From: a virus
Lineage: Duplodnaviria; Heunggongvirae; Uroviricota; Caudoviricetes
Virus record (IMG/VR): IMGVR_UViG_2778261504_000013
Coordinates: 1-15,428 of that record
Length of the DNA: 15,428 nucleotides
Direction: 5' to 3' (one strand)
Shown here piece after piece: positions 1 to 15,428 of this stretch; the first letter of the stretch is position 1; each line of letters begins with the position of its first letter. The position numbers were made by a program, and so were the translations under genes. A model generated the notes under the pieces. The model had not been told where the DNA came from, made no database searches, and saw only the letters and a program-made list of their open reading frames with translations.

Positions 1-896
<896 letters not shown>

Positions 897-1539
897 CGAA
901 AGTATCTTAGCGGGCATGAAAATGGCAAATAACGGTCAAACATCGTGGCGTTGACACCGAAGCTGTAACTGAACCATTCTCTGATTTTGTCCATACGGTA
1001 CATGCTCTACCCATTCATTGAGGGGATTTGCTCTATTTAATTAGGAATAAGGTCGATTACTGATAGAACAAATCCAGGATACTGTGTTTAGTAATCAGAT
1101 TTGTTCGTGACCGATATGCACGGGCAAAACGGCGTGAGGTTGTTAGCGCAACCTCCTGCCACCCGCTTTCACGAAGGTCATGTGTAGAAGGCCGCAGCGT
1201 AACTATCACTGATGAATTCAGGACAGCCAGTGGCTACGGCTCAGTTTGGGTTGTGCTGTTGCTGGGCGGCGATGACGCCTGTACGCATTTGGTGATCCGG
1301 TTCTGCTTCCGGTATTCGCTTAATTCAGCACAACGATAAGAGCACTCAGTGCATTTAAGCCAAGCCCCATAAGGGAGAATGCTCTTACCTGTTGTGCAGA
1401 CAAAAAACCGCACGGCGGCGGGTTTAAGCTGTGTGGCGAAGTTACCCATCTTTACCAAGTATTCGGTAATAAAATAACTTGTGGTGTTCTCATTTTTATG
1501 CCGATAAAATAAACGGTCCACTTTCAAATGGAGCGATTC

Positions 1540-2460
1540 ATGATTTTTCTCAGAACTGAAAACGGCATCGAGAAACTTGAAAACTGGGAGAAAATTATAT
1601 CCAGACCAAACTTTGTCACCACTATAGACAAAGGAGTTCAACAACTTGAGGAGATAATTGGTTACTACAAATTTAAAGAAGAAATCCACTGTGGTCTAAC
1701 TGGTTGCAACCAACCACATCAAATGGGTTATATTGTAAAAACATCTAGTGGCATTGAAACCAACATCGGAAATAAATGTGGTAAAAACGAATTTGGTGTG
1801 GAATTTGGTGAAAACGTTCTTAGTTTCAATAAATTTATGCAACTCGAAACCAATCGGGAAATTATTAGCACCGCAAAAAGTAAATGTGAAGAGTGGCAAA
1901 AAAATATTGAAACGATACGAAATATCAAACCCACAATAGATTATCTATCTTCTACCATCGAAAATAGTAAAAATTCCAATTACTCCGGAAGACTTGGTGC
2001 TACAGAAATTCGTTTTTTGACCAAGAGCCAGACAGGCCTTGTAACCCTTTCTGAAGTGGAAACTGATAAGAATACCAAAACAATTCTGTTCGCAATGAAT
2101 GAACACATGCGCGAGTCTGGAGAGGCAATAAGTGAATTCTACATAGGAAAAGTATCATTTAGTCATGTTCTTTTACCAGAAAACAATCTTCGTGATTTTT
2201 TTGTTGCGCTCAAAGAAGATCTAAAAAAAATTCAGTGTATTGATCTACAAACAGCCCCAAGCCCAGAAATTTCTAATGTTGCCAAAATTGCCAGTTCAAT
2301 CGAAGAACGAATCAAGCGATTAAAAAAACTGAAACATGAAGCCAGTAAATTCCTAACTAAAAAAAATCTGCGTCCCATCGCAAACAAAATAAAATACTCA
2401 TCGACAGCGGATGAACTTGAATTCCATAATTTCGAACGCTTTTTAAAAGGGCTGAAATGA
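1540..2460 (+). CDS. Hypothetical protein, AT-rich orphan gene (about 306-310 aa), function unknown
   Basis: Long ORF of clearly lower GC than its flanks; GGAG lies 6 nt upstream of ATG 1540 (the alternative ATG 1528 has no SD); followed by a hairpin terminator. Contains a Cys/His cluster (HCGLTGCNQPHQ ... NKCGKNEFG). I recognise no family. Confidence 0.65.
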   Translation: MIFLRTENGIEKLENWEKIISRPNFVTTIDKGVQQLEEIIGYYKFKEEIHCGLTGCNQPHQMGYIVKTSSGIETNIGNKCGKNEFGVEFGENVLSFNKFMQLETNREIISTAKSKCEEWQKNIETIRNIKPTIDYLSSTIENSKNSNYSGRLGATEIRFLTKSQTGLVTLSEVETDKNTKTILFAMNEHMRESGEAISEFYIGKVSFSHVLLPENNLRDFFVALKEDLKKIQCIDLQTAPSPEISNVAKIASSIEERIKRLKKLKHEASKFLTKKNLRPIANKIKYSSTADELEFHNFERFLKGLK

Positions 2461-2461
2461 T

Positions 2462-2484
2462 AAAAGCCCCGAAAGGGGCTTCTA
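2462..2484. terminator. Bidirectional intrinsic terminator between the convergent orphan gene and Q
   Basis: Stem 2464-2470 (AAGCCCC) pairs with 2475-2481 (GGGGCTT) around a GAAA tetraloop; U-rich flank is better on the minus-strand side (TTTTA), so it may act as the terminator downstream of Q. Confidence 0.6.
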
Positions 2485-2574
2485 TCAAAATCATTTACGC
2501 ATTATTCCGCATGCTTAAAAGCATACATGACAGATTCGGACAAAATCAAGTGCAATGTCGCAAAAACCCTAAGC

Positions 2575-3405
2575 TTAGTTCACATCATCACCAAAACTTG
2601 TCACATTCTGAAAAGCAATATCGGCCTTACGCTCTTCCTGGTGGCAAATGTCAACCAGAGAATCAAGAAACGGCTTCCAATTACGCGTCCATGTCCTGAC
2701 ATGTAGCTCGGGTATCCGCTTCAGTACAACTTTATATACTGTGGTAGACGGTACCGTGGAAAATCCATTTCCGCTGCAACGTTCGCAGATTTTAAACACT
2801 GGCACACCACGCTCGCTTGTGGCTTTGCGGTCCAGTACCTCTCCCTTTCCACCACAACGACACCTGGCACTTATCACTCCCTTCCCTTTACATACATCGC
2901 AAACGACTGGTACAACTTCCGTTACCTCTGTCCATTTCTCCCAGTCTGACGGTCGAACAGCACGGGAGCGACTGGCCCAATATGGTGCTTTACCCCATGG
3001 GTATGAAACCTTACGAATGACCTGCTTACGGGGTGTTAGTCCGGTACCACTGCAACTATGGCATGTTACGCTGGTGTCTGCCGATCGGGAATACTCAGCA
3101 AAAGCAAACTGCGCCAGTACCAGCATACACCAGCCAAATTCACCACCAGCTGCTTTACGCACATTCTTCGGTGCAATTTCCATCGCGTGACGCGCCAGCG
3201 CCTGGACTGCCATCTGCTCATCAGTCTTGCTGATACCGGCCTTCCCGAAGAAGGCCGCCAAGCCAAACCGCTCACGATTGCTGGTGGTACCAATAGCCGC
3301 CATAACATCGGTGCCTGTAAGACGTTCCGGAGAGGTTCCTTTCACATCGTCGCCGATATACATTCCCTGAGGACTGAAGTATTTTAGCGATGCCTCAAGC
3401 TTCAT
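2575..3405 (-). CDS. Late antiterminator Q-like protein with four DnaJ-type CxxCxGxG zinc-finger repeats
   Basis: CHSCSGTG, CDVCKGKG, CRCGGKG and CERCSGNG repeats; last gene of the cro-side operon (the lambda Q position); start overlaps the upstream stop (TAATG). The family assignment is from memory of Q proteins of the Qin/phage 82 type and is not search-verified. Confidence 0.7.
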   Translation of the reverse strand: MKLEASLKYFSPQGMYIGDDVKGTSPERLTGTDVMAAIGTTSNRERFGLAAFFGKAGISKTDEQMAVQALARHAMEIAPKNVRKAAGGEFGWCMLVLAQFAFAEYSRSADTSVTCHSCSGTGLTPRKQVIRKVSYPWGKAPYWASRSRAVRPSDWEKWTEVTEVVPVVCDVCKGKGVISARCRCGGKGEVLDRKATSERGVPVFKICERCSGNGFSTVPSTTVYKVVLKRIPELHVRTWTRNWKPFLDSLVDICHQEERKADIAFQNVTSFGDDVN

Positions 3406-4262
3406 TATTCACACTCCCCAACCAGATTAAGAATAACCGCCGCGCCATTGTCTTTCATATATTCGCCCTTTCCGCTTGCCAAAAACCAACGACACACCTC
3501 CACGGCTTCAGCCCGTGTCACCGGTTTGATGGTCATCAGCAATTTTTCAAGGTAGCGCTCGCGGTCATATACCGATTCGTGATGCTCAGAGTAACCATAC
3601 TCATCGCCCTGTTCTTTAGACGCAGTGTGGCGAACACTGTAGAGCCAGTCCCAGTAAACAAACTCACGAACTACGTCTGACAATGTATGAGGCTCTGGCA
3701 GTACATCACGATAGCCATCAACATATGCACGACGCTGATCATCAATTTCATTCATACGGATGCCATCAATTCTGCCCGCTGTCTTCTCGGCTGCAGTCCA
3801 GCCCCAGAGATGATCGTCGATAAATTTCTGGGAAGACTGGATCACTCGCTCGGCTTCCACATCTTCGAGTGCTGCTTCATAGCTACCAAACGTAGCCCTG
3901 ACTGATGTTGCTTTTTTGATATTCTCCCGGGCGATCCTGATTGCCTGTGCCGGGTTATCCATGCCGATGGTACCGAAAGCAATCTGGAAAGGATCACCAC
4001 CATTCGCCAGCAGATAACGCGAATAGCGTTCCTGGGCCTCTTTTGGGGAAATTTTAATTTTCACCAGCGCAGCCTCAGCAGCATCCAGATGTGCGGGTTC
4101 GTTCAGACGGATAACCTCCAGCACCCAAAGATAAGCATCAGTCTGCTTATGCCCGGTGATTCTCCGTTGCTCTGGCAGGGGCTTGATGTTTGCGAGGGCG
4201 GAGCTGTACGCTGCCGTCGGGATGGTGAATAGTGCTTTATGTTCGTTGTTATCAGTACGCAT
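3405..4262 (-). CDS. Hypothetical phage protein (285 aa), in the nin-like position between primase and Q
   Basis: Translationally coupled at both ends (TAATG overlaps at 4260-4264 and 3403-3407); no recognisable motif. Confidence 0.65.
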   Translation of the reverse strand: MRTDNNEHKALFTIPTAAYSSALANIKPLPEQRRITGHKQTDAYLWVLEVIRLNEPAHLDAAEAALVKIKISPKEAQERYSRYLLANGGDPFQIAFGTIGMDNPAQAIRIARENIKKATSVRATFGSYEAALEDVEAERVIQSSQKFIDDHLWGWTAAEKTAGRIDGIRMNEIDDQRRAYVDGYRDVLPEPHTLSDVVREFVYWDWLYSVRHTASKEQGDEYGYSEHHESVYDRERYLEKLLMTIKPVTRAEAVEVCRWFLASGKGEYMKDNGAAVILNLVGECE

Positions 4263-5230
4263 TACGCAACCGCCTTTTTCTTATGGAAAACCAGCTCTCG
4301 AACCTGATCACCGTTCATGAGCATATTGTTGAAATCATCGTGATCCGGCCAGTACACGCTCACGCGCTGCAGGTCATTCTTTGCCATCAGATTGGCATGA
4401 GCACATTCGCAAGCCGCAGCCAGCCCGGTGGCGCTGTTCTCGTCACGGTCGGCAAAAATAATCAGGTGCAGAACACCAGCTGGTACGCGGAACTTTTTCA
4501 TAAAGCCGCTGTTAATGGTTGCCCAAGTGTTCACGTTATAAATCTGGTGCGCTGACAGCGCTGTTTCGATGCCTTCGGCGATACCCAGAGTGCTAGCAAC
4601 AGGAAACATGCGGATAGCTACAGAACGAGCGTGATCCAAATAGTTATCTTCCTGCAGGGATTTGAGGCGCTTTGCACTGCTACCGATATCTGCTTTTTTA
4701 TCACCATCAAGCAGAGTCTGGTGCAGATAGCACAACTCCCCTTTATCGTCCGTAGCAAGTGAATAAAGAGACTGGAACACACTCCCGTTGTGTCTCTGCC
4801 TGGCATTGAACCGGATCGCCTCAGCAGGAAGACTGAATATTCCACGAGAATTAAGATACGCTGCGCCGGATGTACCACGCAGTGCCTCCAGTTTTGAAAA
4901 CTTGCTCAATACCCGTTTGCGTAAGCTGGTGGCGCTGCTGGTTACCGGGATTTTAACCCGTTGGTAATCATTACCGATCAGGCGGTCTATTTCGGTACAA
5001 ATCTCGTTAAATGGCTTCGCCTGTGTCAGGGTGACAAGTTTCATACCATCGCCACTACCACATACACAGATCCACGTTCCTGCACCGTCGCGGTCATCAA
5101 TTCGGAACTTGCCACGTGCACCGCATACCGGGCATTCACCCTTGAAGTGATTTTTTCCTGTTATCGGCGGCAAGCCGAAGTGCTCTAATATTTCAGGCCA
5201 GCGGCCTTTCGCTGCAGCTGCTGTTTTCAT
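4262..5230 (-). CDS. DNA primase with N-terminal zinc-binding domain and Toprim domain
   Basis: CPVCG ... WICVCGSG zinc-binding motif; Toprim signatures IAEGIETALS and IIFADRDEN (DxD); coupled to the helicase gene. Confidence 0.8.
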   Translation of the reverse strand: MKTAAAAKGRWPEILEHFGLPPITGKNHFKGECPVCGARGKFRIDDRDGAGTWICVCGSGDGMKLVTLTQAKPFNEICTEIDRLIGNDYQRVKIPVTSSATSLRKRVLSKFSKLEALRGTSGAAYLNSRGIFSLPAEAIRFNARQRHNGSVFQSLYSLATDDKGELCYLHQTLLDGDKKADIGSSAKRLKSLQEDNYLDHARSVAIRMFPVASTLGIAEGIETALSAHQIYNVNTWATINSGFMKKFRVPAGVLHLIIFADRDENSATGLAAACECAHANLMAKNDLQRVSVYWPDHDDFNNMLMNGDQVRELVFHKKKAVA

Positions 5231-5231
5231 C

Positions 5232-6890
5232 TTACTGACTCAAACTGTTTATATTTTTCTGGAGTTGTTGCTTTGCTTGCATGATGCGCCAAGCCTCAGT
5301 GCCTATTGGCATCTCGCTTCGCTCACCTCGTTCCTGAGACAGAGGAATCGTTGCCTGCAATTTTTCTATAGTTCTCTGCGTCCGCTGACGGCCTTTGGCA
5401 AACCGAATCAGCTTGTGTTTGATGTAGTTACTTACTTCTGGGCTTATTTCCATCGGGAAACTGCTCAACCCATCAGGCCATTCACCGAATTTCTCCCTGA
5501 AAGTGTGAGCACACCATCCATCACTGACTGGACGCCCCAGCGAAGCACGCTGGCGCTGATAAAATTTGATCTGACTCCACCAGGACTGTTTCTCTGTCTT
5601 CGTCGACTGATGCTGATTTTTACCCAGCTTATTAAGTTTGCGGCTAGTGTCAGTATCAACATCTTCACCTCGCAGCGGCTTGTGTCCACATTTAGGGCAA
5701 ACATAGACGCCAGCTGGCTTCATGTAGTGGCATTGAGGGCATTCATGTGGCAGTTTTTCGGCCCGTTCCTCAACTGCGCGGCGCGCGCTTTCCTCCATGC
5801 CGTCAGACTTACCGGGAAGATCGTCGTACTCGATTGAATCCGGATAACCCAAACGGTGCACGGTGCCGCTGTGATCGAAGATAAGGCAGGACTCTTTACC
5901 CGGTGCGGTGCGCAGCCCACGCCCGAGTGCCTGCAACCAGCGAATTTCGCTTTTTGTTGGCCTGGCGTAGATGATGCAACGAACGTCACTATCAAAGCCG
6001 GCCACCAGAACGCCCACACTAACGATGATTTTCGTTGCACCAGTTTCAAAGCGGTGAATGATGGTCTGGCGCTCATCTACCGGAGTGTCTGCGGTCATTA
6101 CCTCAGCGTTAACACCTGCGAGGTTAAACTGGATTGTCAGGTAATTGGCGTGGGCTACGTTGACGCAGAAAGCGATGGTAGGTAGATCCCGACCATTCTC
6201 CAGCCAGTTCTGTACGATGTCGCCCACCAGCGTAGAGCCGCACATGATTTCAGCCAGCTGTGTTTCGTTGTAATCGCGGCCGTACTCAAGCGAAGATGTG
6301 GTTTTAACACCTTTCAGATCCGGCTTAGTTGGCGCGTAAAATTCGTATTTACTCAGATCGCCACGCTGGATTAACTCGCCGATGGTGGTCGGCTTAATCA
6401 GTCGGTCATAGTATTTGCCCAGGAACGGAGAAAACGGAGTACCCGACAGGCCAATCACCTTTACGCCTTTGCCGCGCAGACGTTCGATATCCTTCAGGAT
6501 GCGTTTTTTACGCAGGTGCGCTTCGTCGATAATCAGCAGATCGATATTTTCAGGAAAAACACGACGAATAAGCGTGTCAGTGCTGGCAATCTGAATTTTC
6601 CGGTCCGGATCGTAGTTCGGGTGATCCGCCCAGATATAACCGATTTCATCTCCAGGTAAACCATACTGCACGAACCGATTAGCCGTCTGACCAATCAGGA
6701 TGGTGTACGGAACACAGAACAGAACACGCATACCACGGCTGACAAAACCAGCAACGATGAAGGCTGCCAGACCCGTTTTACCGCTACCTGTTGGCGAGTA
6801 AACCATGAAGGTGTCGTTTGCCTTCCAGTCACGGCGCAACATGTTTAGCGCTCGCTCCTGTGCAAAATTCGGCGTGATTGTCAGCTGCAT
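5232..6890 (-). CDS. Superfamily 2 (DEAH-type) DNA helicase, replication module
   Basis: Walker A SPTGSGKTG, DEAH box IIDEAH, motif III LSGTPF, motif VI QALGRGLR; C-terminal zinc ribbon CPQCH ... CPKCGH. Confidence 0.85.
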   Translation of the reverse strand: MQLTITPNFAQERALNMLRRDWKANDTFMVYSPTGSGKTGLAAFIVAGFVSRGMRVLFCVPYTILIGQTANRFVQYGLPGDEIGYIWADHPNYDPDRKIQIASTDTLIRRVFPENIDLLIIDEAHLRKKRILKDIERLRGKGVKVIGLSGTPFSPFLGKYYDRLIKPTTIGELIQRGDLSKYEFYAPTKPDLKGVKTTSSLEYGRDYNETQLAEIMCGSTLVGDIVQNWLENGRDLPTIAFCVNVAHANYLTIQFNLAGVNAEVMTADTPVDERQTIIHRFETGATKIIVSVGVLVAGFDSDVRCIIYARPTKSEIRWLQALGRGLRTAPGKESCLIFDHSGTVHRLGYPDSIEYDDLPGKSDGMEESARRAVEERAEKLPHECPQCHYMKPAGVYVCPKCGHKPLRGEDVDTDTSRKLNKLGKNQHQSTKTEKQSWWSQIKFYQRQRASLGRPVSDGWCAHTFREKFGEWPDGLSSFPMEISPEVSNYIKHKLIRFAKGRQRTQRTIEKLQATIPLSQERGERSEMPIGTEAWRIMQAKQQLQKNINSLSQ

Positions 6891-6940
6891 TGTGCTGTCC
6901 CCGCAGTGATGAGATAATAATTTTGTGATGTGGTTTTCAT
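6881..6940 (-). CDS. Possible 19-aa upstream ORF (MKTTSQNYYLITAGTAQCS) coupled to the helicase start
   Basis: Strong SD GAGGAGGAA 5 nt upstream of ATG 6940; its stop overlaps helicase codons 2-3, while the helicase's own SD is weak. Too short to call on coding signal alone. Confidence 0.3.
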   Translation of the reverse strand: MKTTSQNYYLITAGTAQCS

Positions 6941-7001
6941 GGATTCCTCCTCACATGGCTGGTGGTCTCCCCAAAGGCTGCCAGCCCCTTTCCGAATCAA
7001 C

Positions 7002-7370
7002 TCACTTAAATTTCGTCGCACGAATAACGTCAATTCCGTTCTCGCTATATCGAAGAGGGTGCTTACCATCCCTGAGCAGGACAAAACCTGACATCCCCTC
7101 AGGTAGCTGAGCCAGCTTCATCAACGAACGGTTGCGGGGAGACTTCTTATCGACCTCAATGGCACACTGCTGGCCGTCTGATGATGTAACCAAGCAATCA
7201 ATAAACCCTTTACGACCACCGCTAATGCTGATGCTGAAATTGCGTTGCAGGTGGTATCCCTGAGACTTGATTTTTTTCTGCATCACATAATCGAAAACGA
7301 CTTTGTCATCGGAGCGGATGAATTGCTCTTCCAGGAGAGCGATTAAATTTTGCTTCAGGTCTTCACTCAT
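7002..7370 (-). CDS. Small protein with possible PD-(D/E)xK / VRR-NUC-like nuclease core, upstream of the helicase
   Basis: Segment GRKGFIDCLVTSSDGQQCAIEVDKKS ... Q ... GFVLL resembles the VRR-NUC core; the track's start at 7406 is TTG, so ATG 7370 is preferred. Family assignment is low confidence. Confidence 0.5.
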   Translation of the reverse strand: MSEDLKQNLIALLEEQFIRSDDKVVFDYVMQKKIKSQGYHLQRNFSISISGGRKGFIDCLVTSSDGQQCAIEVDKKSPRNRSLMKLAQLPEGMSGFVLLRDGKHPLRYSENGIDVIRATKFK

Positions 7371-7619
7371 ACTTTTTATCCATCTTGTACTAGCTTTCTG
7401 GTACAATCGTTTTTTCAGGGGTATCCCCCTTTAGATCGAGATCTACCTAACCTATGTACCCGTCTGTTGGAAAAGCCTGTTCCAGTGCTTCGCACTAACA
7501 CACGGGCACTCCTCCCCCTCCCCTCCTCTCACTGAATTTTGCATGTACTCCTTAGCTAGTACACAAAATGCAATGAGATTTGGGATTCAGCCACCGGACA
7601 CCTTTAAGCCCGGTACCAA

Positions 7620-7913
7620 TCAGGAGCGCGATTGCGTTCCTGCCAGGGGCGGCTGAGTTGTATACCCCTGTAAAGCTCTGCCCTGATTTCTCACGAACAG
7701 GCGGAGCCTTGTGTTTGCTTCATGCCTTGCTCTGTTCTCCTTACGGAATGAAACAGGCTCAGCGTCAAAAGTGATTTCGTATACCTCCGCATATTTCAGG
7801 GCGACCTTCCGTCTCAGTGACGGAGGCAGCCCCTGTAACTGCTGCTGAATCCACTCTTTGTCTGCCTGGCAGTACCTAGATGGCATCTCTGTCTGAACGT
7901 AATTCTGGGACAT
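7620..7913 (-). CDS. Hypothetical early protein (97 aa) immediately downstream of cro
   Basis: ORF with GGAGGTGA upstream of ATG 7913; overlaps the cro 3' end by 38 nt; in the cII-like position but with no resemblance to lambda CII. Confidence 0.5.
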   Translation of the reverse strand: MSQNYVQTEMPSRYCQADKEWIQQQLQGLPPSLRRKVALKYAEVYEITFDAEPVSFRKENRARHEANTRLRLFVRNQGRALQGYTTQPPLAGTQSRS

Positions 7914-8163
7914 ACAAGCCCTTCACCTCCCCCGTGCGCGCTAAGCTTGGATGTGGAAAAAGCTCTGGTAGGTCTGGACGAAATTCATACGCTTGGATCT
8001 TTCCGTCTACAGCTGCAACCAATAACGGCACAAATTCTGGTGAAATCTTGTTCTTGCAGTTCAACCAATCGCAGACTGTTGACTGGGCCTTTCCGCATCG
8101 CTTGGCTAAGGCTTGCTGACTTCCAAGAATCTCAATAGCTTTCTCTATGGCTTTATGTTTCAT
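7876..8163 (-). CDS. cro: Cro-like HTH repressor (Cro/YdaS type)
   Basis: 95 aa, HTH SQQALAKRCGKAQSTVCDWLN; divergent from the cI-like gene; AGGAGA SD upstream of ATG 8163 (the track's upstream extension is less likely). Confidence 0.7.
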   Translation of the reverse strand: MKHKAIEKAIEILGSQQALAKRCGKAQSTVCDWLNCKNKISPEFVPLLVAAVDGKIQAYEFRPDLPELFPHPSLARTGEVKGLYVPELRSDRDAI

Positions 8164-8185
8164 AATCGCATCTCCTATTGAACGC

Positions 8186-8214
8186 ATAATAACAACAGGA
8201 AAAGCGATATTCAA
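8186..8214 (-). promoter_or_regulatory. Candidate PR-like sigma70 promoter for cro (TTGAAT-17-TATTAT on the minus strand)
   Basis: Read on the minus strand: -35 TTGAAT (8209-8214), 17-nt spacer, -10 TATTAT (8186-8191), about 25 nt upstream of the cro start. Confidence 0.5.
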
Positions 8215-8230
8215 CGTTAAACCTAGAATA

Positions 8231-8250
8231 TTTATCGGAAAGCCGATAAA
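8231..8250. promoter_or_regulatory. Operator: perfect 20-bp palindrome TTTATCGGAAAGCCGATAAA in the cro-cI intergenic region
   Basis: 8+4+8 inverted repeat seen directly; its 14-bp core ATCGGAAAGCCGAT matches two sites at the promoter downstream of cI (11/14 to the 9028-9041 site). Confidence 0.55.
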
Positions 8251-8282
8251 CTAGCCAAGATAGAGAGGGGAGGAAAATCGCA

Positions 8283-8975
8283 ATGACATTTTCAGAACGA
8301 CTTGATTTAGCTATGCGCAACGCAAAATTTACGCAAGGTAGGCTGGCCAAAGAAGTGGGTATGGCTCAGTCCAGTGTTAATCAACTACTTAACAAAGCCA
8401 ACGGTTCCAGAAAAACAGTCGAAATAGCAAAAGTTTTGGGCGTTAACCCGGAATGGCTCGCATCGGGTGTTGGCCCAATGGAAATCGTGACCTCTGCAGA
8501 CTCACACCAAATACGTAACATTTCTGAAGATTGGGTTACTGATTCGTATGTCGTGGATGTTTTAGACATCAGATATAGTTGCGGACCTGGTAGTTATAAC
8601 TCTGATTTTCCTGACATTGTCAGATCTATAGCTATAGAACCAGGATACGCATCAAGAGTTTTTGGCGGCAGACCAGCATCAGCAATCAAAGCAATAAACG
8701 CCCACGGCGACAGTATGAAAGGCACAATAGACCCTGAAGACTTGGTATTTGTAGATGTATCAGTTCGCACATTTAATGGTGATGGTATATACGCCTTTAC
8801 ATACTCTGGAACATCGCACATCAAAAGACTTCAAAAAATCAAAGATACTCTAACGGTGATATCTGACAACCCAGCTTACAAGGATTGGGCTATCGAACCG
8901 GAAGACTTCGAACAACTTCACATTGACGGAAAAGTAATTGTCAGTTGGCCTATGACACTACACCGTTTTGCATAA
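8283..8975 (+). CDS. cI: CI-type prophage repressor: N-terminal HTH plus C-terminal S24 (LexA-like) autopeptidase
   Basis: HTH QGRLAKEVGMAQSSVNQL; S24 catalytic Ser in AHGDSMKG and Lys in HIKRL; possible Cys-Gly cleavage site (YSCGPG); strong SD GGGGAGGA; divergent from cro. Confidence 0.85.
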   Translation: MTFSERLDLAMRNAKFTQGRLAKEVGMAQSSVNQLLNKANGSRKTVEIAKVLGVNPEWLASGVGPMEIVTSADSHQIRNISEDWVTDSYVVDVLDIRYSCGPGSYNSDFPDIVRSIAIEPGYASRVFGGRPASAIKAINAHGDSMKGTIDPEDLVFVDVSVRTFNGDGIYAFTYSGTSHIKRLQKIKDTLTVISDNPAYKDWAIEPEDFEQLHIDGKVIVSWPMTLHRFA

Positions 8976-8993
8976 GCAAAAATCATTTAACCC

Positions 8994-9018
8994 GCCCACT
9001 CTTAAGTGGGCTTTTTTT
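8994..9018 (+). terminator. Intrinsic terminator after cI
   Basis: GCCCACT-CTTA-AGTGGGC perfect stem-loop (8994-9011) followed by T7 (9012-9018). Confidence 0.7.
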
Positions 9019-9027
9019 GGAAGAAAA

Positions 9028-9069
9028 ATCGATAAACCGATTGACAGGTGAAATCGGTAAACCTATTAT
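9028..9069 (+). promoter_or_regulatory. PL-like early promoter (TTGACA-17-TATTAT) with two overlapping operator copies
   Basis: -35 TTGACA 9041-9046, 17-nt spacer, -10 TATTAT 9064-9069; operator-like 14-mers ATCGATAAACCGAT (9028-9041, abutting the -35) and ATCGGTAAACCTAT (9053-9066, over the spacer and -10). Confidence 0.6.
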
Positions 9070-9109
9070 CTTGACATAGGTATCGAACTCACCAAAGCAA
9101 TTATAGAGG

Positions 9110-9529
9110 ATGAGAAAAATGTCATCGTATATGGGGTTACCAACAAATCAGCACGATGCTCTTGAGAATATTCAGCTCTTAGTAGGGGCTGGTGCACTAC
9201 TGTATAGCAGCAATAACCCTGAGTTAATTGAACTTGCCAGCTCCATCCTGGCTGTAACTCAAAAATATAGCCTCACCGCGTCACGTTTATGCAAACAAAA
9301 TTTAGCTATTAATTCCCAGAATCGGATTCGCACCCAACGCGAAGCCTGCGGCTTAACAACCGCCGAACTCGCCAGGCTGCTCGATCTCGATGAAGAAATC
9401 ATCATCCAGTGGGAGAGCGGAGAGTATGAACCAACTATCAGTATGCTTATCCCTCTGGCTAATGTTTTTGGCTGTGACCCAATGTGGTTATTGACTGGTG
9501 CTTATAAACAAAATCAGGAGGAAGCATAA
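9110..9529 (+). CDS. XRE-family HTH protein (C-terminal HTH), first gene of the PL-like operon
   Basis: C-terminal HTH TQREACGLTTAELARLLDLDEEIIIQWESGEYEPT; the start may be ATG 9119, which has better SD spacing; N-terminal domain unknown. Confidence 0.65.
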   Translation: MRKMSSYMGLPTNQHDALENIQLLVGAGALLYSSNNPELIELASSILAVTQKYSLTASRLCKQNLAINSQNRIRTQREACGLTTAELARLLDLDEEIIIQWESGEYEPTISMLIPLANVFGCDPMWLLTGAYKQNQEEA

Positions 9530-9530
9530 G

Positions 9531-9722
9531 ATGAAAATGTTCAAAGGCCTTACCAACGAACCGGAGACAGTTTTTCATCACATTGCCGTACTGCTTGAAG
9601 CGGGGTTAATCATTTCGGCTTCCGGTGATGAAGAATGTGATGAACTTTCGGATGATATCTTTCTACTGGCACAACAATACGCCAGAAGCGCATGCGATGC
9701 ATTTAAGGAGCAAAGAACATGA
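9531..9722 (+). CDS. Small acidic hypothetical protein (63 aa)
   Basis: AGGAGG SD; acidic stretch SGDEECDELSDD; stop overlaps the next start (ATGA). Confidence 0.5.
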   Translation: MKMFKGLTNEPETVFHHIAVLLEAGLIISASGDEECDELSDDIFLLAQQYARSACDAFKEQRT

Positions 9723-9910
9723 AAACTCCATTAAATATTCTTGAGGAAGTGGCAGCACAAATAAAAGAGAATACATCAATGCTTGAATTTATATTTAAGA
9801 ATTCGCCCGACCAAGGAGAGACAGACGATTATTTATGCTGTCTCATTCGCTCCATGAATAAGACCTGTGAAATGGCTTACGAGTATATAGAAACACTACG
9901 CAACGAATAA
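9719..9910 (+). CDS. Small acidic hypothetical protein (63 aa)
   Basis: AAGGAG SD 8 nt upstream; translationally coupled to the preceding ORF. Confidence 0.5.
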   Translation: MKTPLNILEEVAAQIKENTSMLEFIFKNSPDQGETDDYLCCLIRSMNKTCEMAYEYIETLRNE

Positions 9911-10094
9911 AGAACTCTCAATAAAAAATCACACATAAAAACATGACGGCCTCTGGTCGGGGGTTTTCACAACCAGAAAATAATGGTGATGCATGAAAAA
10001 CAGAAGTGCTTATAAAACCGCATTATTAATGGCTAATGCAGGATACTGGTCAGTTGCAATACTGTTTCTCAGGAAAGCATACGGGAAATAACAA

Positions 10095-10454
10095 ATGACA
10101 CATGAACCCATTAATACATATCGTCGCCGTATAGCTGTTGCGGCACTCCATCGAATAAAACGTAAAACAGGTGTTAATCTGCTTATTGTTGACCTTCCTG
10201 ATGGGAACATTACGACCATAGAAATAACTGAACAGTTTATAAACCAGTTGCTGTTACGCTTCGAAGGTATTACCCGTGGCGAATTGGGCCGGGTGGAGGG
10301 TGAAACCGAAATCCACACTGCATACCAGAATGCTATCGGGATTAATCAACATACTGAATACCTGACTGAAACCGGAAAGTTAATTATAGACAACCTTTTT
10401 CAAGAGGTTATTGATTACGCGAAAGAAAAATATATCAGCGGAGGAATTAACTGA
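10095..10454 (+). CDS. Hypothetical protein (119 aa)
   Basis: ORF in the operon after a 184-bp gap; weak SD; stop overlaps the next start (TGATG). Confidence 0.55.
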   Translation: MTHEPINTYRRRIAVAALHRIKRKTGVNLLIVDLPDGNITTIEITEQFINQLLLRFEGITRGELGRVEGETEIHTAYQNAIGINQHTEYLTETGKLIIDNLFQEVIDYAKEKYISGGIN

Positions 10455-10669
10455 TGGCTAATTTATCCCCTGTATCTGTTGTGCACGAAAAAGTGCAGAT
10501 CGTTATGACAATTGAAAATGGCCAAGTCACAGGTGTCTGCAAAGTCCGCGATGGCGAGCTGATTGCCAGCATGGATACATTCATACGGCTGGCAGAAAGA
10601 GCGGGGTATCAGATAACAGCACCTGCTCAGGAGGAAACCGGTGGCATTAACAGCAACACGCATTCCTGA
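10454..10669 (+). CDS. Hypothetical small protein (71 aa), possible partner of the downstream toxin-like ORF
   Basis: Coupled to the upstream gene and overlaps the downstream ORF by 29 nt, the usual antitoxin-toxin geometry; no recognisable motif. Confidence 0.45.
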   Translation: MANLSPVSVVHEKVQIVMTIENGQVTGVCKVRDGELIASMDTFIRLAERAGYQITAPAQEETGGINSNTHS

Positions 10670-10862
10670 GTGGGTGCACCTGCAGGCGGTCCGTGTTCTC
10701 CGCCAGTTCAGAGCCAGACGAATTCATCCCTGTCGTATGCACGGCTCCGGAAACCTGAGTCTGAGGGTTAATCGCCGCTGGCGGCTGCTGTCCCGAGACG
10801 GCGGCCAGAACTGGGAAGTAATGAGCCATGAACGATACAGCAAAGTTAAGGACCGGAAATGA
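10641..10862 (+). CDS. Candidate RelE/HigB-superfamily toxin-like protein (73 aa, GTG start)
   Basis: AGGAGG 7 nt upstream of GTG 10641; C-terminal segment LSLRVNRRWRLLSRDGGQNWEVMSHERY resembles the RelE/HigB core (LRV ... EVMTHKEY). Shorter than typical family members, so it may be degenerate. Confidence 0.4.
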   Translation: MALTATRIPEWVHLQAVRVLRQFRARRIHPCRMHGSGNLSLRVNRRWRLLSRDGGQNWEVMSHERYSKVKDRK

Positions 10863-10892
10863 ACAATAAATCTTCAAACCAAAAGGAGAGTA

Positions 10893-11474
10893 TTGATGAT
10901 TAATTCAACCATTACCCCTGAACCTACATTAACAGGCATCCGTTTTGGTAATCGAATTATTGGCTATTCAACTGCGGTTCGCCAGATCGACAACGGTAAC
11001 TATGACAAACGAATTCCGGACGGGCTCGATCTGATAGCTTGCATTATGGAAGGGATTGAAAGCGGCTGGTTTATGCCGTGTATTGAAAAACAAATCATCC
11101 TATGGCGCTGGCTTGTTGTCGCCGTGTTCATTGCTGAGGAGCAGGAGAAGAACGGGACTGTCGATGTTCAGAATGACAAGGGCGGCGTAGATACAGCCGT
11201 TGTATACACGGGAAAACCCGGTTCAATCAGCATTTATCCGTGGTCTGAGCGCTTCGCGCTCGCTAACCATATCGAGGCGGGCGCAATTGAAAAATACGGG
11301 CCTGACGTTGGTCAGCAGATGGCGCTGCGTATGTATCAGGACATGGTTGTAACTGACGAGAAATGCGGATTCAGGCTGTCAGCGATGGGCCGGGAGGGAC
11401 TCAACATACTACATGACAGCTTCATTGAACTGATTCAGAAAGACGGTATGCCAGACATGCCGGTTATGCACTGA
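10893..11474 (+). CDS. Hypothetical protein (193 aa)
   Basis: AAGGAG SD 7 nt upstream; no recognisable domain. Confidence 0.6.
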   Translation: MMINSTITPEPTLTGIRFGNRIIGYSTAVRQIDNGNYDKRIPDGLDLIACIMEGIESGWFMPCIEKQIILWRWLVVAVFIAEEQEKNGTVDVQNDKGGVDTAVVYTGKPGSISIYPWSERFALANHIEAGAIEKYGPDVGQQMALRMYQDMVVTDEKCGFRLSAMGREGLNILHDSFIELIQKDGMPDMPVMH

Positions 11475-11485
11475 GGTGGACGAAA

Positions 11486-12235
11486 ATGAACATAGTAACG
11501 ATCAATAACAAACAGCTTCCGGCAGTCGAATATCGCGGTCAGCGTGTTGTGACGCTGGCAATGATTGATGAAGTCCACCAGCGCCCGGAAGGTACCGCCC
11601 GTGCTGCGTTTAACCGCAACCGTTCTCACTTTATCAAAGGGGTGGATTTTCTTGAAATGACTGCGGACGTAATACGTACGGAGTCACTTTCTGATGCCTT
11701 TGCCGCGCGAACTGCCAAAGGGATCATTCTTTTCGAGTCTGGTTACCTGATGTTGACGAAGCCTTTTAACGATGCTCTTGCATGGCAGGTTCAGCGCGAA
11801 CTGGTTAACAGCTATTTCCGAACTCACGCGCCGCTGACGGAAATGGAGATGATCGCTGCAATGGCCGCCGATGCCGTTCGCCAGCAGAAGCGCCTGAGTC
11901 ATGTTGAAGAGAAGATCGAAACGGTCACCAAAGCTGTGGAGAACATCAAACGCGGCACAATGCGCACCGGATATGTCGGTTACCGCCAGGTGGTAGCCAA
12001 AAGCGGAATGAGTGACGCCAAGTGTCGGAATCTGGTCAACGCCTACCACATCCCTACCGACACGCACGAATTTATGACTCCGGACGGTCTGTTGTCTCGC
12101 AGGGCTGTCGTCGAGCTTGAGACATTTATGGCGGCGTTCCACCAAATGATGTCAGAGGCTGAACCACGCGGCACACGCTGGTATCACCCGAAGATGGGGC
12201 TTTTTCAGGTAATCGGATGGGAGGATAAAGCATGA
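11486..12235 (+). CDS. ORF6N-domain protein (antirepressor / Rha-like regulator family)
   Basis: N-terminal LAMIDEVHQRPEGTARAAFNRNRSHFIKGVDFLEMT matches the ORF6N pattern (..kRN..rF..g.dF..lt); GAGGTGGA SD; stop overlaps the next start (ATGA). Confidence 0.65.
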   Translation: MNIVTINNKQLPAVEYRGQRVVTLAMIDEVHQRPEGTARAAFNRNRSHFIKGVDFLEMTADVIRTESLSDAFAARTAKGIILFESGYLMLTKPFNDALAWQVQRELVNSYFRTHAPLTEMEMIAAMAADAVRQQKRLSHVEEKIETVTKAVENIKRGTMRTGYVGYRQVVAKSGMSDAKCRNLVNAYHIPTDTHEFMTPDGLLSRRAVVELETFMAAFHQMMSEAEPRGTRWYHPKMGLFQVIGWEDKA

Positions 12236-12801
12236 TCATCCAGTCAAAACTTATTCGCGCCGCTCTGGTGTGCGCTGCTAAAAACGACGTTCGTTATTAC
12301 CTGAACGGTCTTCACATCACGCCAAAACATATTGAGGCAACCAATGGTTTCGTAGCACTGCGCATGACTCACGGCATCCGGACGAAGAAAAACATCATTG
12401 TCCAGTTCGAAGGTGGCGTCCCGGCCAAAGCCGAAACGACAGAGCTGATTTTTAGTAAAGAGCCGATCGCTGTTCATCGCGACCAGTTTCAGCGCCGGCT
12501 GTCCATTACCGGCATTAAATTGGTGGACGGTTGTTTTCCGGATTTGGAACGCATCATTCCGAAAAAATTTGACCTCTGTACACACCCGGTGATCCAGGCG
12601 GGTTACCTGAGTTATCCAGAGAAGATGTTTGGTCGTGAGCGTAAATTTATTCCCGTCCAGTTACGTTCCTCCGGTGACGGGCAAGCGGTCAGAATTCAGT
12701 TTGATTCCATCATCAACTCAATGTATGGCAATCCTGAATTTGTTGTGATGCCTTGTCGTGATCATGGCGATTTCAATGTGGCTCAGGAGCATCCGGAATG
12801 A
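12232..12801 (+). CDS. Truncated DNA polymerase III beta-clamp (DnaN) homologue, domain II plus partial domain III
   Basis: Three collinear matches to E. coli DnaN as I recall it: NDVRYYLNGL vs QDVRYYLNGM; IKLVDGCFPDLERIIPKKFD vs SKLVDGRFPDYRRVLPKNPD; EFVVMPCRD vs AYVVMPMRL. Only 189 aa, lacking domain I. Confidence 0.7.
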   Translation: MIIQSKLIRAALVCAAKNDVRYYLNGLHITPKHIEATNGFVALRMTHGIRTKKNIIVQFEGGVPAKAETTELIFSKEPIAVHRDQFQRRLSITGIKLVDGCFPDLERIIPKKFDLCTHPVIQAGYLSYPEKMFGRERKFIPVQLRSSGDGQAVRIQFDSIINSMYGNPEFVVMPCRDHGDFNVAQEHPE

Positions 12802-12836
12802 AAATCGAATACCAGGACGCCGCAGGAGGTGAATCA

Positions 12837-12920
12837 ATGAGCTGGCCTGATGCAATCGTAACTCTGGGGGTGGTATTCGCAGTAGCGTTTGTTGTGTTCT
12901 CGATTTGTCGATGGGGATAA
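12837..12920 (+). CDS. Small single-pass membrane peptide (27 aa, MSWPDAIVTLGVVFAVAFVVFSICRWG)
   Basis: Strong SD AGGAGGTGA 6 nt upstream of ATG; hydrophobic core typical of a transmembrane helix; below the size cutoff of the ORF track. Confidence 0.4.
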   Translation: MSWPDAIVTLGVVFAVAFVVFSICRWG

Positions 12921-12924
12921 CCAC

Positions 12925-13092
12925 ATGTTCGCTTTGATTCAACGCGGTCAGATATACACGGACAGAGCTGGATACCCCGTGGTGATTACTCGCATCACTG
13001 AGCACTCAGTGTTCTTTCGACGGATGGACGGACGATCCGGGCGGGTACGCATTGGTGAGTTAAACTGCCTGTTCGAACATATTGACCACTAG
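12925..13092 (+). CDS. Small hypothetical protein (55 aa)
   Basis: ATG 12925 with a GGGGA upstream; internal start within the track ORF 12889-13092. Confidence 0.4.
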   Translation: MFALIQRGQIYTDRAGYPVVITRITEHSVFFRRMDGRSGRVRIGELNCLFEHIDH

Positions 13093-13170
13093 GAGTACCG
13101 CAAAATTCTCGCGGACACTGAGCAGGAAAAGCACCTGAAAAAATTACGAGCCATAAAAAGGAAGTAAAGA

Positions 13171-13317
13171 ATGAATAAAGCATTTGAACGATGGGTCCAC
13201 CAGCGTTACGGCAATCGCTATGACCTGACGCGAGATGTTGACGGCTTCTACTGTCGTGAAGTTGTGAAGCGAATGTTTGAAGTGTGGTGCCACTGCCGTG
13301 GGCTGAGTGTTGTGTGA
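13171..13317 (+). CDS. Small Cys-containing hypothetical protein (48 aa)
   Basis: AAGGAAG SD; ORF MNKAFERWVHQRYGNRYDLTRDVDGFYCREVVKRMFEVWCHCRGLSVV; sits just upstream of xis. Confidence 0.4.
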   Translation: MNKAFERWVHQRYGNRYDLTRDVDGFYCREVVKRMFEVWCHCRGLSVV

Positions 13318-13325
13318 GGTGATGT

Positions 13326-13535
13326 ATGGGGCTGGATTGCGTGCCTATATCAACCTACTGCCGCGACGCGGGAGAAACGGTTGATGCCGTTAACAAACGG
13401 ATACAAAGAGGAATATGGAAAGAAGGGGTTCATGTATTAAAAGTCGATGGAGTTAAAGAACGCTGGGTCGACTTAATAGAGGTTTCAAAATGGGCAAGAA
13501 AGAACAAGGATTATTATCTCTGCCAAGAGGAGTAA
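13326..13535 (+). CDS. xis: Excisionase-like protein
   Basis: 69-aa ORF immediately upstream of and overlapping int by 46 nt, as in lambda xis-int; GAGGTGA SD; small basic winged-helix-like sequence. Confidence 0.6.
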   Translation: MGLDCVPISTYCRDAGETVDAVNKRIQRGIWKEGVHVLKVDGVKERWVDLIEVSKWARKNKDYYLCQEE

Positions 13536-14668
13536 CTATTCGTAAGCATAAAACTGCTTCAACACTAGTTATCACTTTCACATATAAAGGGGTTCTTTGC
13601 AGGGAGCCCCTGTCTCGGCTTGAGGCAAATACACGTGGTATTAAATATGCTGAGCGCCTGCTAGGGGAGATACAAAATCAGATCGCCAGTGGAACGTTTG
13701 AATATGCGAAATATTTCCCCAGTTCCAAAAAACTGGAGTTATTCGGTATAGTAAAGAAAACCAAAAATATTAAGTCCTATCTTGATGAATACCTGAAAAT
13801 TTGCATGAACCGCAATCTGTCGCCGTCAACCATTGGCGGTTACGAAAAATGTATATCAGCACTATCAGAGCTACATAAACTACATGTAACAGAATTGACG
13901 CCTGCGGTACTAAAAAATTGGATAGCCAGCCGAAAAACTAAGCTGAAAACAATCAGGAATAACCTGTCATTTCTGCGCAGCGCCATTGATGAGGCTGTAA
14001 CTGATGGCCTGTTGACTATTAACCCGGTAACTCTTGTCAGCGCCAGCCGGTATCACGTGGTCGACAGTAAACCGAACGCCGACGATTACGAAGTTGATCC
14101 GTTTGCGCCTGCGGAAACCAGTGCCATATATCAGCACTGCAAGTATCAGGAATGGCAGAATCTGTTCCGCTTCGCCTTCAATACAGGGCTACGCAGCTCT
14201 GAGCTATGCGCATTACGTTGGACCGATATCGACTTTATAGGTAATACAGCGCACATACAGGCGGCCAGTGTCGTAGGGGTACTTAAAGGCACCAAGACAA
14301 AAGCCGGTACCCGTAAGGTGGAGCTGAACAGTGAGGCGCTGGCGGCCCTGCAGGCGCAGAAGCAATACACCTTTATGAAAAGTGAGTTCATATTCAGCGA
14401 TCCGAAAACGGGAGATCCCTGGACGAACGCCGACGCTATCCGTAAAAAAGCATGGGTGCCGACCCTAAAAAAAGCTGGTGTGCGCTACCGTAACCCGTAC
14501 CAGACGCGCCACACATTCGCCACCAGACACATTAGCCAGGGTGTAAACCTTTTCTGGCTTGCCGGGCAGATGGGGCATAAGGGGCCGGAAATGCTGTTCC
14601 GCAATTACGGTAAATACCTGGCTGAATACGACGGGAAAACCGCAATGGAAGCTGGAATGAAGAAGTGA
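13490..14668 (+). CDS. int: Tyrosine recombinase (phage integrase)
   Basis: Catalytic signature TGLRSSEL (Arg), TRHTFATRH (His-x-x-Arg), HKGPEMLFRNYGKY (His and Tyr nucleophile); N-terminal arm-binding-like region; last gene of the operon. Confidence 0.9.
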   Translation: MGKKEQGLLSLPRGVTIRKHKTASTLVITFTYKGVLCREPLSRLEANTRGIKYAERLLGEIQNQIASGTFEYAKYFPSSKKLELFGIVKKTKNIKSYLDEYLKICMNRNLSPSTIGGYEKCISALSELHKLHVTELTPAVLKNWIASRKTKLKTIRNNLSFLRSAIDEAVTDGLLTINPVTLVSASRYHVVDSKPNADDYEVDPFAPAETSAIYQHCKYQEWQNLFRFAFNTGLRSSELCALRWTDIDFIGNTAHIQAASVVGVLKGTKTKAGTRKVELNSEALAALQAQKQYTFMKSEFIFSDPKTGDPWTNADAIRKKAWVPTLKKAGVRYRNPYQTRHTFATRHISQGVNLFWLAGQMGHKGPEMLFRNYGKYLAEYDGKTAMEAGMKK

Positions 14669-14674
14669 TTTGAA

Positions 14675-14706
14675 GAAAAAACCCGGCAAATGCCGGGTCT
14701 TTTTGA
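14675..14706. terminator. Bidirectional intrinsic terminator between int and the convergent 196-aa gene
   Basis: ACCCGGCA / TGCCGGGT inverted repeat (14681-14698) flanked by an A-run upstream and T5 downstream. Confidence 0.7.
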
Positions 14707-14709
14707 TGG

Positions 14710-15300
14710 TTATTCTGTCGCGCCACCTATCGAAACATAATCATGAAATTGATCGTCAATGAGTCGGTCCTTACAGATAACATGTACAATGTGACGACAA
14801 CAGTTTTCATCATCATACGCACGACCCCAGCGAACAATCTCATCTACAGACAGATCATTCGCACTCCATGGCAAAGTACCTGAAACACCACGCGCACCTG
14901 GACCAAGTATGTCCATAAATTTCTTCGTGCGTGAATTGTAGATCCGTACCTCGGCAATTCGAATGATGCTACTAGCCCAAAGAGCACCACCGGCAATACT
15001 TTGAATGTTATCGCAGATGAGAAACTCATGCTTTCGCGCAAGCATTTTATAGATCTCACGCGCCAAACCTGCTGATTGGAAATCCTGTGCGATAACAGCG
15101 CTTTTCACTTGCTTTCCGGTCATCATCTGACCGTTCTCTTCGATAAAATTAAAGTCGTTGAACTGTATACGACCTATTCTTATCGTTTTGTTATCGTCTA
15201 CCATATCAAGACCCAAGAGGGTATTGACCAGATCCTGCATTGGAACCTTCGAATCAAGAAGGTCACTGCCATAGTCTAAAAAAAGTCGTCGGTGGAACAT
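14710..15300 (-). CDS. Hypothetical protein (196 aa), AT-rich, convergent with int; function unknown
   Basis: Complete ORF (in-frame stop 11 codons upstream of the ATG), no strong SD; no motif I can assign; lies at the att-proximal edge of the prophage or in flanking DNA. Confidence 0.6.
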   Translation of the reverse strand: MFHRRLFLDYGSDLLDSKVPMQDLVNTLLGLDMVDDNKTIRIGRIQFNDFNFIEENGQMMTGKQVKSAVIAQDFQSAGLAREIYKMLARKHEFLICDNIQSIAGGALWASSIIRIAEVRIYNSRTKKFMDILGPGARGVSGTLPWSANDLSVDEIVRWGRAYDDENCCRHIVHVICKDRLIDDQFHDYVSIGGATE

Positions 15301-15428
15301 CCCAGTTGATACACATCCAAGTAGTACTGAAACTCACCAGAACTGACAATGGGTGATGCTGCCAACTTACTGATTTAGTGTATGATGGTGTTTTTGAGGT
15401 GCTCCAGTGGCTTCTGTTTCTATCAGCT

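Follow-up and report, generated by a model that had tools for sequence, protein, structure and literature searches.

A minimal RelE/HigB-type protein of a lambdoid prophage, encoded on a single-gene cassette and lacking a constant antitoxin-like neighbour

The gene analysed here encodes a protein with the fold of the RelE/HigB/ParE toxin superfamily. E. coli RelE uses a catalytic set composed of K52, K54, R61, R81 and Y87, and the catalytic residues of P. vulgaris HigB are H54, R73, D90, Y91 and H92. In PaaR-PaaA-ParE systems, an upstream helix-turn-helix (HTH) regulator, a small antitoxin and ParE are inherited together. Phage T4 makes an early endoribonuclease, RegB, which adopts the RelE/YoeB fold and for which no antitoxin is known (PMC3014915). 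We analysed a gene for a toxin-like protein of this superfamily, called tox below, in a DNA stretch of 15,428 nucleotides (nt) that corresponds to positions 1 to 15,428 of the IMG/VR virus record IMGVR_UViG_2778261504_000013 (Caudoviricetes). The whole stretch (the window) is a lambdoid-type prophage. A preliminary description had proposed a possible toxin-antitoxin-like pair, made of an open reading frame (ORF) of 71 amino acids (aa) and an overlapping RelE/HigB-like ORF of 73 aa. The observation and the toxin-like call stand, but the pairing is not supported, since the 71-aa gene comes and goes independently.

The tox gene occupies positions 10641..10862 of the plus strand, starts with GTG and encodes 73 aa. 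As described, it overlaps by 29 nt an ATG-initiated ORF of 71 aa on the same strand (10454-10669), and the Shine-Dalgarno (SD) sequence AGGAGG, at 10629..10634, lies within the 3' end of that upstream ORF, 6 nt before the GTG at 10641. A protein database search gave 61 relatives of the 73-aa product (best E=5e-40), all 61 carrying the Pfam domain PF24732, and 68 of the 71-aa product, which also matches phrog_340 with E=2e-24. Because of these relatives and of the Pfam and PHROG family matches, both ORFs are considered genuine genes and not chance ORFs. Among 66 distinct homologous start regions, the codon aligned to 10641 is ATG in 49 and GTG in 15, a GGAG/GAGG-type SD precedes it in 53, and residues 1-11 of the protein are conserved at the protein level. 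An in-frame GTG at 10674 would give a 62-aa product and no overlap, and it is the choice of PGAP in one genome. We rejected it, since it is a start codon in 21 of the 66 regions only, against 64 with ATG or GTG at 10641. Spanning the whole tox gene on the minus strand there is also a 76-aa ORF (10647-10877), which is a chance ORF because stop codons interrupt it in 67 of 107 distinct homologues. An intact tox gene, with 96% protein identity, is present but unannotated in the record of Escherichia phage phi467 (LN997803; locus L005, 3528-3749).

The 73-aa protein belongs to PF24732 ('ParE_like', 'ParE-like toxin domain') and to phrog_1525. With 70.8 bits (E=9.9e-20), the Pfam match is well above the gathering threshold of 24.4, and it covers profile positions 2-67 of 67, a full-length domain. 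Proteins 96% identical to it are labelled 'ParE family toxin-like protein' in RefSeq, and relatives in some phage records are called 'HigB-like protein', 'mRNA interferase' or 'putative toxin antitoxin system protein'. The name of the Pfam family is itself a structural inference, and a literature search for PF24732 and its RefSeq name found no paper on the family. The AlphaFold2 model, built with 32 homologues, is confident (pLDDT 89.9, pTM 0.76). It consists of a strand (2-5), a helix (10-24), three further strands (39-42, 47-51 and 57-62) and a C-terminal helix (63-71), thus showing the compact alpha/beta fold of the RelE/ParE superfamily, in which N-terminal helices pack on an antiparallel sheet of three to four strands as in the solved toxins. 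Profile search and structure prediction had both been suggested as checks of the toxin-like call. The latter returned the RelE/ParE-type fold, while the former gave a divided answer: PF24732 was matched, but the ParE/RelE and HigB models were not. The remark that the product is shorter than canonical members also holds, with 73 aa against 84-121 aa in the solved toxins that it matched and a single N-terminal helix instead of the usual two.

Sequence searches gave little beyond PF24732. The 73-aa protein matches none of the Pfam models ParE, RelE, HigB, YoeB and YafQ, and neither this protein nor the 71-aa and 119-aa (p1737, see below) products match the NCBIfam or PADLOC libraries. Searches of PDB sequences, whether started from the single sequence or from a narrow or a broad profile of the family, returned only chance Asp-box matches and a non-significant HigB. 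With the broad profile, P. vulgaris HigB was the top PDB sequence, at a non-significant E=1. This alignment covers the sheet and the C-terminus and places R48 opposite R73 and Y66 opposite Y91 of HigB; a second, similar local alignment of the family to P. vulgaris HigB was also obtained. An exhaustive profile search collected only 111 cluster representatives, nearly all of 60-90 aa.

In 55 diverse members taken from these representatives, whose identity to the query is 25-62%, R48 never varies, and H63 and Y66 are conserved in at least 90%. This conservation indicates purifying selection, and the protein is a minimal member of the RelE/HigB/ParE superfamily. In the alignment of these 55 members the conserved core reads WRLLS.D.G..W..MSHE.Y (10782..10838, plus strand), and the codons of R48 (10782-10784), H63 (10827-10829) and Y66 (10836-10838) mark candidate functional residues, an Arg/His/Tyr cluster of the kind that RelE-type RNases use. 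The core includes SRDGGQNW (residues 51-58; 10791-10814, plus strand), an Asp-box-like hairpin between the last two of the three C-terminal strands. It fits the BNR/Asp-box motif SxDxGxxW, which accounts for the chance-level matches to the beta-propellers Ycf48 and arabinanase. Asp-boxes have been described in microbial ribonucleases. In three other family members, P0253 (226 aa), P0284 and P0292 (198 aa), the ParE-like domain is preceded by an N-terminal extension of about 130 aa that is conserved. P0284 and P0292 are homologous throughout the extension, and the proteins look like true domain fusions.

Compared with the described systems, the locus differs from each of them. HigB from P. vulgaris (4px8) and E. 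coli (6kml) has 92-118 aa and two N-terminal helices, whereas our protein has 73 aa and one. It has no match to the HigB model PF05015 at E values up to 10, and the position aligned to H54 of HigB is variable in the family. Nor is there a HigBA module, as the downstream gene, of family phrog_1515, has no HTH and is not of the HigA type. The likeness to E. coli RelE is at the level of the fold only: hhalign of the family alignment against E. coli RelE, with a sequence verified against K-12, found nothing (E=0.46), and no RelB/YefM/DinJ-type partner, such as accompanies RelE, YoeB and YafQ, is found at the locus. The ParE model PF05016 does not match either, and hhalign detected no similarity to a provisional RK2 ParE sequence. 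Unlike the gyrase poisons (ParE1/ParE2, PaaA2-ParE2, RK2 ParE), the 73-aa protein has no ParD/PaaA-type antitoxin at its locus. The arrangement is not that of PaaR-PaaA-ParE, since p1737 lacks an HTH and its combinations with the two genes that follow all occur. T4 RegB is larger, with an extra helix and two histidines, and provides an analogy of logic and not a family to which the protein belongs.

We then compared 133 loci with a relative of the 73-aa protein, taken from 47 species-representative genomes, 80 viral contigs, five annotated records and the window, and scanned their neighbourhoods with hidden Markov models (HMMs) of the 71-aa family and of the 119-aa p1737 family. In 83 loci, p1737, the 71-aa family and tox follow one another; 34 have p1737 and tox with no room for a 71-aa gene, and 16 have tox with neither upstream family. 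Consequently, the 71-aa family is absent from 34 of the 117 enterobacterial and Yersinia loci that retain tox. These 34 include Kosakonia, Phytobacter, Pseudocitrobacter, Enterobacter, Pseudescherichia, Yersinia and phage AsXd-1, while the 16 are from Serratia, Erwinia, Xenorhabdus, Pectobacterium and Brenneria. The converse also occurs: Klebsiella prophages of the same backbone carry p1737 and the 71-aa gene both with and without tox. When the survey started from p1737, this gene stood alone in Enterobacter, beside a 64-aa gene in E. coli, beside a Rem-like gene in Salmonella and beside tox in Kluyvera, so that all four presence/absence combinations around p1737, the 71-aa gene and tox were observed. 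In 50,697 phage records, tox was found in 66, the 71-aa family in 30 and p1737 in 20. Only 8 of the 30 records with the 71-aa family also have tox, the other 22 being Stx-converting phages, phiP27 and others.

The proposed antitoxin-toxin pairing finds no support in these counts: the 71-aa gene is missing where tox is kept, and in prophages and in 22 of 30 phage records it is found without tox. Moreover, tox genes at least 95% identical adjoin 71-aa-family proteins that are only 36% identical, and p1737 proteins down to 24% identical, which further argues against a pair. Co-divergence of tox with its neighbours was considered as a signal of cognate pairing and discarded, because the correlation, positive overall, is expected of linked genes and is broken in many pairs. 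No adjacent, co-occurring cognate antitoxin gene, as a type II module has, was found, nor does the proposed partner carry an antitoxin or DNA-binding domain (RHH, HTH, AbrB or Phd/YefM). Among tox neighbours, comprising the downstream families and those in Sortsne, KMB41 and Serratia phages, no antitoxin-type Pfam domain was detected but one, a borderline winged-helix match in a 72-aa ORF that precedes tox in Serratia. At least 12 gene families lie downstream of tox in related loci. The downstream gene was also considered as a HigA-type antitoxin and discarded, the families at that position being variable and lacking Pfam domains, and none having an HTH. The preliminary description had itself recognised no antitoxin fold upstream, and the 71-aa protein indeed matches no antitoxin family or fold. 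Judging from these comparisons, the 71-aa gene is a neighbour of tox but not its obligate partner, and appears to be an independent Rem-like accessory gene.

The overlap between the two ORFs had been read as the usual antitoxin-toxin arrangement. It is explained instead by the way in which tox is inserted. Alignment of two Klebsiella prophage loci, one without tox (L133) and one with it (L137), shows a clean indel of about 220 bp that extends from just before the SD to the tox stop. The corresponding cassette in the window, containing the SD and the toxin-like gene, would lie approximately at 10626..10862 on the plus strand. Its 5' end provides an SD but no in-frame stop for the preceding gene. 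Whatever gene precedes it thus reads on to the same TGA and gains a tail of the type ...(D/N)S(D/N)T(N/H)S, so that the 29-nt overlap is a by-product of the cassette and the last approximately 9 codons of the 71-aa ORF come from it. The same 29-nt overlap is found with three unrelated upstream proteins. Such reading on is seen for the 71-aa Rem-like gene, in phage LMessi for an 84-aa variant, and in AsXd-1 for a p1737 of 135 aa. These comparisons indicate that tox travels as a single-gene cassette with its own SD and no promoter. Small basic ORFs overlapped from upstream are easily miscalled as toxin-antitoxin pairs, and here the overlap is a cassette artefact. In Pseudocitrobacter faecalis DSM 27453 (L009, 3623-4222), a 1-nt deletion in the SD (GGAGGG->GGGGG) fuses p1737 and tox into a 199-aa ORF; p1737 has the same spacing in loci L101 and L104.

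The position of tox in the prophage suggests when it may be expressed. The minus strand of the window encodes a cro-like gene, a DEAD-box helicase, a primase and the Q antiterminator (2575-3405), and the plus strand an S24/HTH repressor (8283-8975), followed by a string of small genes that ends with xis and int (13490-14668). After the repressor gene come a terminator-like hairpin (8994-9011, plus strand), found by terminator scan, and a strong sigma-70-like promoter with 11 of 12 consensus matches (9041-9069, plus strand), found by promoter scan. Operator-like repeats, ATCGATAAACCGAT / ATCGGTAAACC, surround the -35 element and spacer of this promoter (9027-9067). The repeats CCGATAAAC / ATCGATAAACCGAT / ATCGGTAAACC recur in the cro-cI intergenic region (8233-8251) and at 9027-9067, and are probably repressor binding sites. 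The region 8994-9069 is thus a likely repressor-controlled early-left promoter driving the operon with tox. No other convincing promoter or terminator was found by scanning the plus strand before about 12996, which makes tox an internal gene of what is probably the early-left operon. Between 9069 and the two overlapping ORFs, the consensus scan, which weak promoters may escape, found only a 9-of-12 match inside the start of p1737 and no separate promoter for the pair.

Taken together, we think, with a probability of roughly one half, that the 73-aa protein is a solitary phage effector with the RelE/HigB fold that is made during lytic development. According to this proposal, the 73-aa ORF would be a functional single-domain protein of the RelE/HigB/ParE superfamily, whose promoter-less cassette of about 220 bp would have been inserted at gene junctions of phage operons. 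In the lysogen, the prophage repressor would keep the early-left operon, from the 9041 promoter to xis and int, silent, and the 73-aa protein would be produced after induction or infection. If expression is thereby restricted to a cell committed to lysis, no antitoxin would be needed. The protein would then act alone on a nucleic-acid process of the host or of the phage. The likeliest activity would be a ribosome-associated mRNA cleavage of the RelE/HigB type through R48, H63 and Y66, gyrase poisoning of the ParE type being less likely, and the functional analogy that we favour is T4 RegB, a solitary phage RNase of the same fold. The analysis shows that the gene is genuine, to which family and fold its product belongs, that it behaves as a cassette independent of the 71-aa gene and where it stands in the operon, whereas its silence in the lysogen, the lack of an antitoxin and an RNase-type action are what we infer.

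Several observations weigh against this proposal. Activity and toxicity of the family are putative, and the literature search brought no paper on it. No characterised toxin is significantly similar in sequence, HigB being reached at E=1 and E. coli RelE and RK2 ParE not at all. The argument from catalytic residues consequently rests on a weak alignment, since the HigB match is non-significant. Repressor control of the 9041 promoter is suggested by consensus scans and repeats. Moreover, p1737 is present in all 117 enterobacterial and Yersinia tox loci. Finally, an antitoxin may be encoded elsewhere in the phage, be a host factor, or be supplied by interchangeable, non-homologous upstream genes, such as the 72-aa ORF of Serratia.

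Of the alternatives, the one that survives best, though we still find it unlikely, is that the RelE-fold protein is no longer a toxin. It would be a small basic regulator that binds nucleic acid or the ribosome, or an anti-defence factor, harmless and thus in no need of an antitoxin. Such a role agrees with the lack of a constant partner and of any match to Pfam ParE, RelE, HigB, YoeB and YafQ, with the absence of a second N-terminal helix (in canonical members a pair of them makes up the surface that binds the antitoxin), and with the carriage of tox by many prophages with no obvious decay. Nevertheless, Arg, His and Tyr are strongly conserved where the HigB active-site residues align, and the very basic charge of the protein (pI 11.9) is typical of ribosome-dependent RNases, both points being suggestive only.

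Somewhat less probable still is that p1737 is the real partner, either in a two-gene p1737-tox module in which the Rem-like gene is an optional insert, or in a three-component analogue of PaaR-PaaA-ParE. In its favour, it precedes tox at every one of the 117 enterobacterial and Yersinia loci, whereas the genes on either outer side change from locus to locus, with at least 8 families upstream and 12 or more downstream. In addition, 17 of the 20 phage records with p1737 also hold tox, p1737 is mildly acidic, and Pseudocitrobacter provides a natural in-frame p1737-tox fusion. However, three of the four families sampled from the p1737 side lack tox, and these families are abundant (84 and 110 collection blocks); some Klebsiella prophages also have p1737 without tox. 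No p1737 accompanies the more remote tox homologues of Serratia, Erwinia, Xenorhabdus, Pectobacterium, Sortsne and OS31, near-identical tox genes lie beside p1737 variants down to 24% identical, and p1737 lacks both a PDB relative and any domain of the DNA-binding or antitoxin kind. The constant adjacency would be explained at least as well by a junction favoured for recombination and insertion in one phage lineage. As to the classical type II pair, in which the 71-aa protein would bind and neutralise the 73-aa toxin and the 29-nt overlap would couple their translation, the order and sizes of the genes, the charges of the products (pI 5.1 upstream and 11.9 for the toxin), the SD within the upstream gene, the p1737, 71-aa gene and tox order of 83 of 133 loci, and an upstream model with a structured core and a disordered C-terminal tail like many antitoxins would all fit, but the independent occurrence of the two genes makes it very improbable.

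The wider distribution of PF24732 is compatible with a solitary effector. Most of the members (60-90 aa) in our survey are of phage or prophage origin. The podophages of Sortsnevirus and Murrayvirus (Sortsne, KMB41) have them immediately upstream of the lysis cassette, and the Sortsne record has no annotated integrase. The 120-125-aa upstream gene of Sortsne and KMB41 was checked as a distant relative of p1737 or of the Rem-like gene and proved unrelated to both. In Serratia phage OS31 the member stands between a ParB-like gene and a gene of unknown function. A Foldseek search of predicted viral structures retrieved proteins labelled 'ParE-like toxin domain' from RaK2, a jumbo myovirus of Klebsiella that has been described (PMC3622015), and from Yersinia phage fHe-Yen9-04. 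Since members sit by lysis genes, in jumbo phages and in phages without an annotated integrase, an addiction role in plasmid or prophage maintenance does not fit. Xenorhabdus genomes (L042-L048 and L052; X. budapestensis, X. hominickii, X. japonica and others) have two or three copies each of an 84-aa member, every copy a few bases upstream of a 441-aa ORF, the L052 copy being frameshifted. This suggests that the Xenorhabdus copies and the 441-aa ORF form a repeated mobile element.

More tentatively, and we hold this to be doubtful, PF24732 might be a distinct class of minimal RelE/HigB-fold effectors without antitoxin, used by temperate and virulent phages during lytic growth and spread as promoter-less cassettes at gene junctions. 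By analogy with T4 RegB, their mode of action could be cleavage of host or phage mRNA at the ribosome, or they could stop macromolecular synthesis of the host in another way. If they are active, they would represent a toxin fold used by phages without an antitoxin, which would bear on the recruitment of RelE/ParE proteins between phages and toxin-antitoxin modules and on host takeover or shut-off by prophage early operons. Near-identical proteins with RefSeq names and a curated Pfam family are already known, and their biochemical activity is putative. The finding is modest for these reasons.

A few tox relatives come from unexpected sources. In Aeromonas phage AsXd-1 (L003), Elizabethkingia phage EKP1 (H22) and Chryseobacterium sp. 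18061 (L027), the tox products are 73-96% identical to the enterobacterial ones, and the AsXd-1 gene is 92% identical at the DNA level. The named hosts are outside Enterobacterales, so that the host labels or the purity of these assemblies are doubtful.

With respect to the neighbouring genes, the 71-aa product (10454..10669, plus strand, ATG start) is a small, acidic, Rem-like phage protein of phrog_340 that matches nothing in Pfam, although some relatives carry the new Pfam domain PF27490 ('Rem'), with matches marked as weak. Comparison by hhalign of its family with Rem from E. coli K-12 (b1561; Qin prophage, PF27490) aligned Rem residues 42-79 with E=3.4e-4, a probability of 38% and 21% identity. 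The alignment covers the core of the 71-aa protein, a beta-hairpin and a helix. Rem has no known function. The AlphaFold2 model of the 71-aa protein is of moderate quality (pLDDT 74, pTM 0.33), with a beta-hairpin, one helix and a disordered tail, and no structural neighbour or sequence relative was found in the PDB. In the Qin prophage of E. coli K-12 MG1655 (L157, 1644651-1645872), relB-relE-hokD are immediately followed by rem. This is a second instance of a Rem-family gene beside a RelE-superfamily toxin, in the opposite order and perhaps by coincidence.

The p1737 gene (10095..10454, plus strand, 119 aa) matches phrog_1737 with E=1.9e-52 and is a constant upstream landmark in this phage lineage. 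It has no Pfam domain and no HTH, and its source labels are only 'hypothetical protein' or 'Fels-1 prophage-like protein'. Downstream of tox, the phrog_1515 gene (10896..11474, plus strand, E=9e-89) is not a constant neighbour and has no Pfam or antitoxin domain.

Two further features of the prophage deserve mention. The gene in the cro position (7876-8214, minus strand), divergent from the repressor gene, matches Pfam 'YdaS_toxin' with E=1.6e-14. YdaS-type proteins are Cro-like HTH regulators, which makes this a further toxin label to be read with caution. The left end of the window carries, beside the late-regulation region, an IS21-type IstB ATPase gene (96-896, plus strand; Pfam IstB_IS21, E=2.5e-90), whose position suggests the insertion of an insertion sequence (IS) in or beside the prophage.

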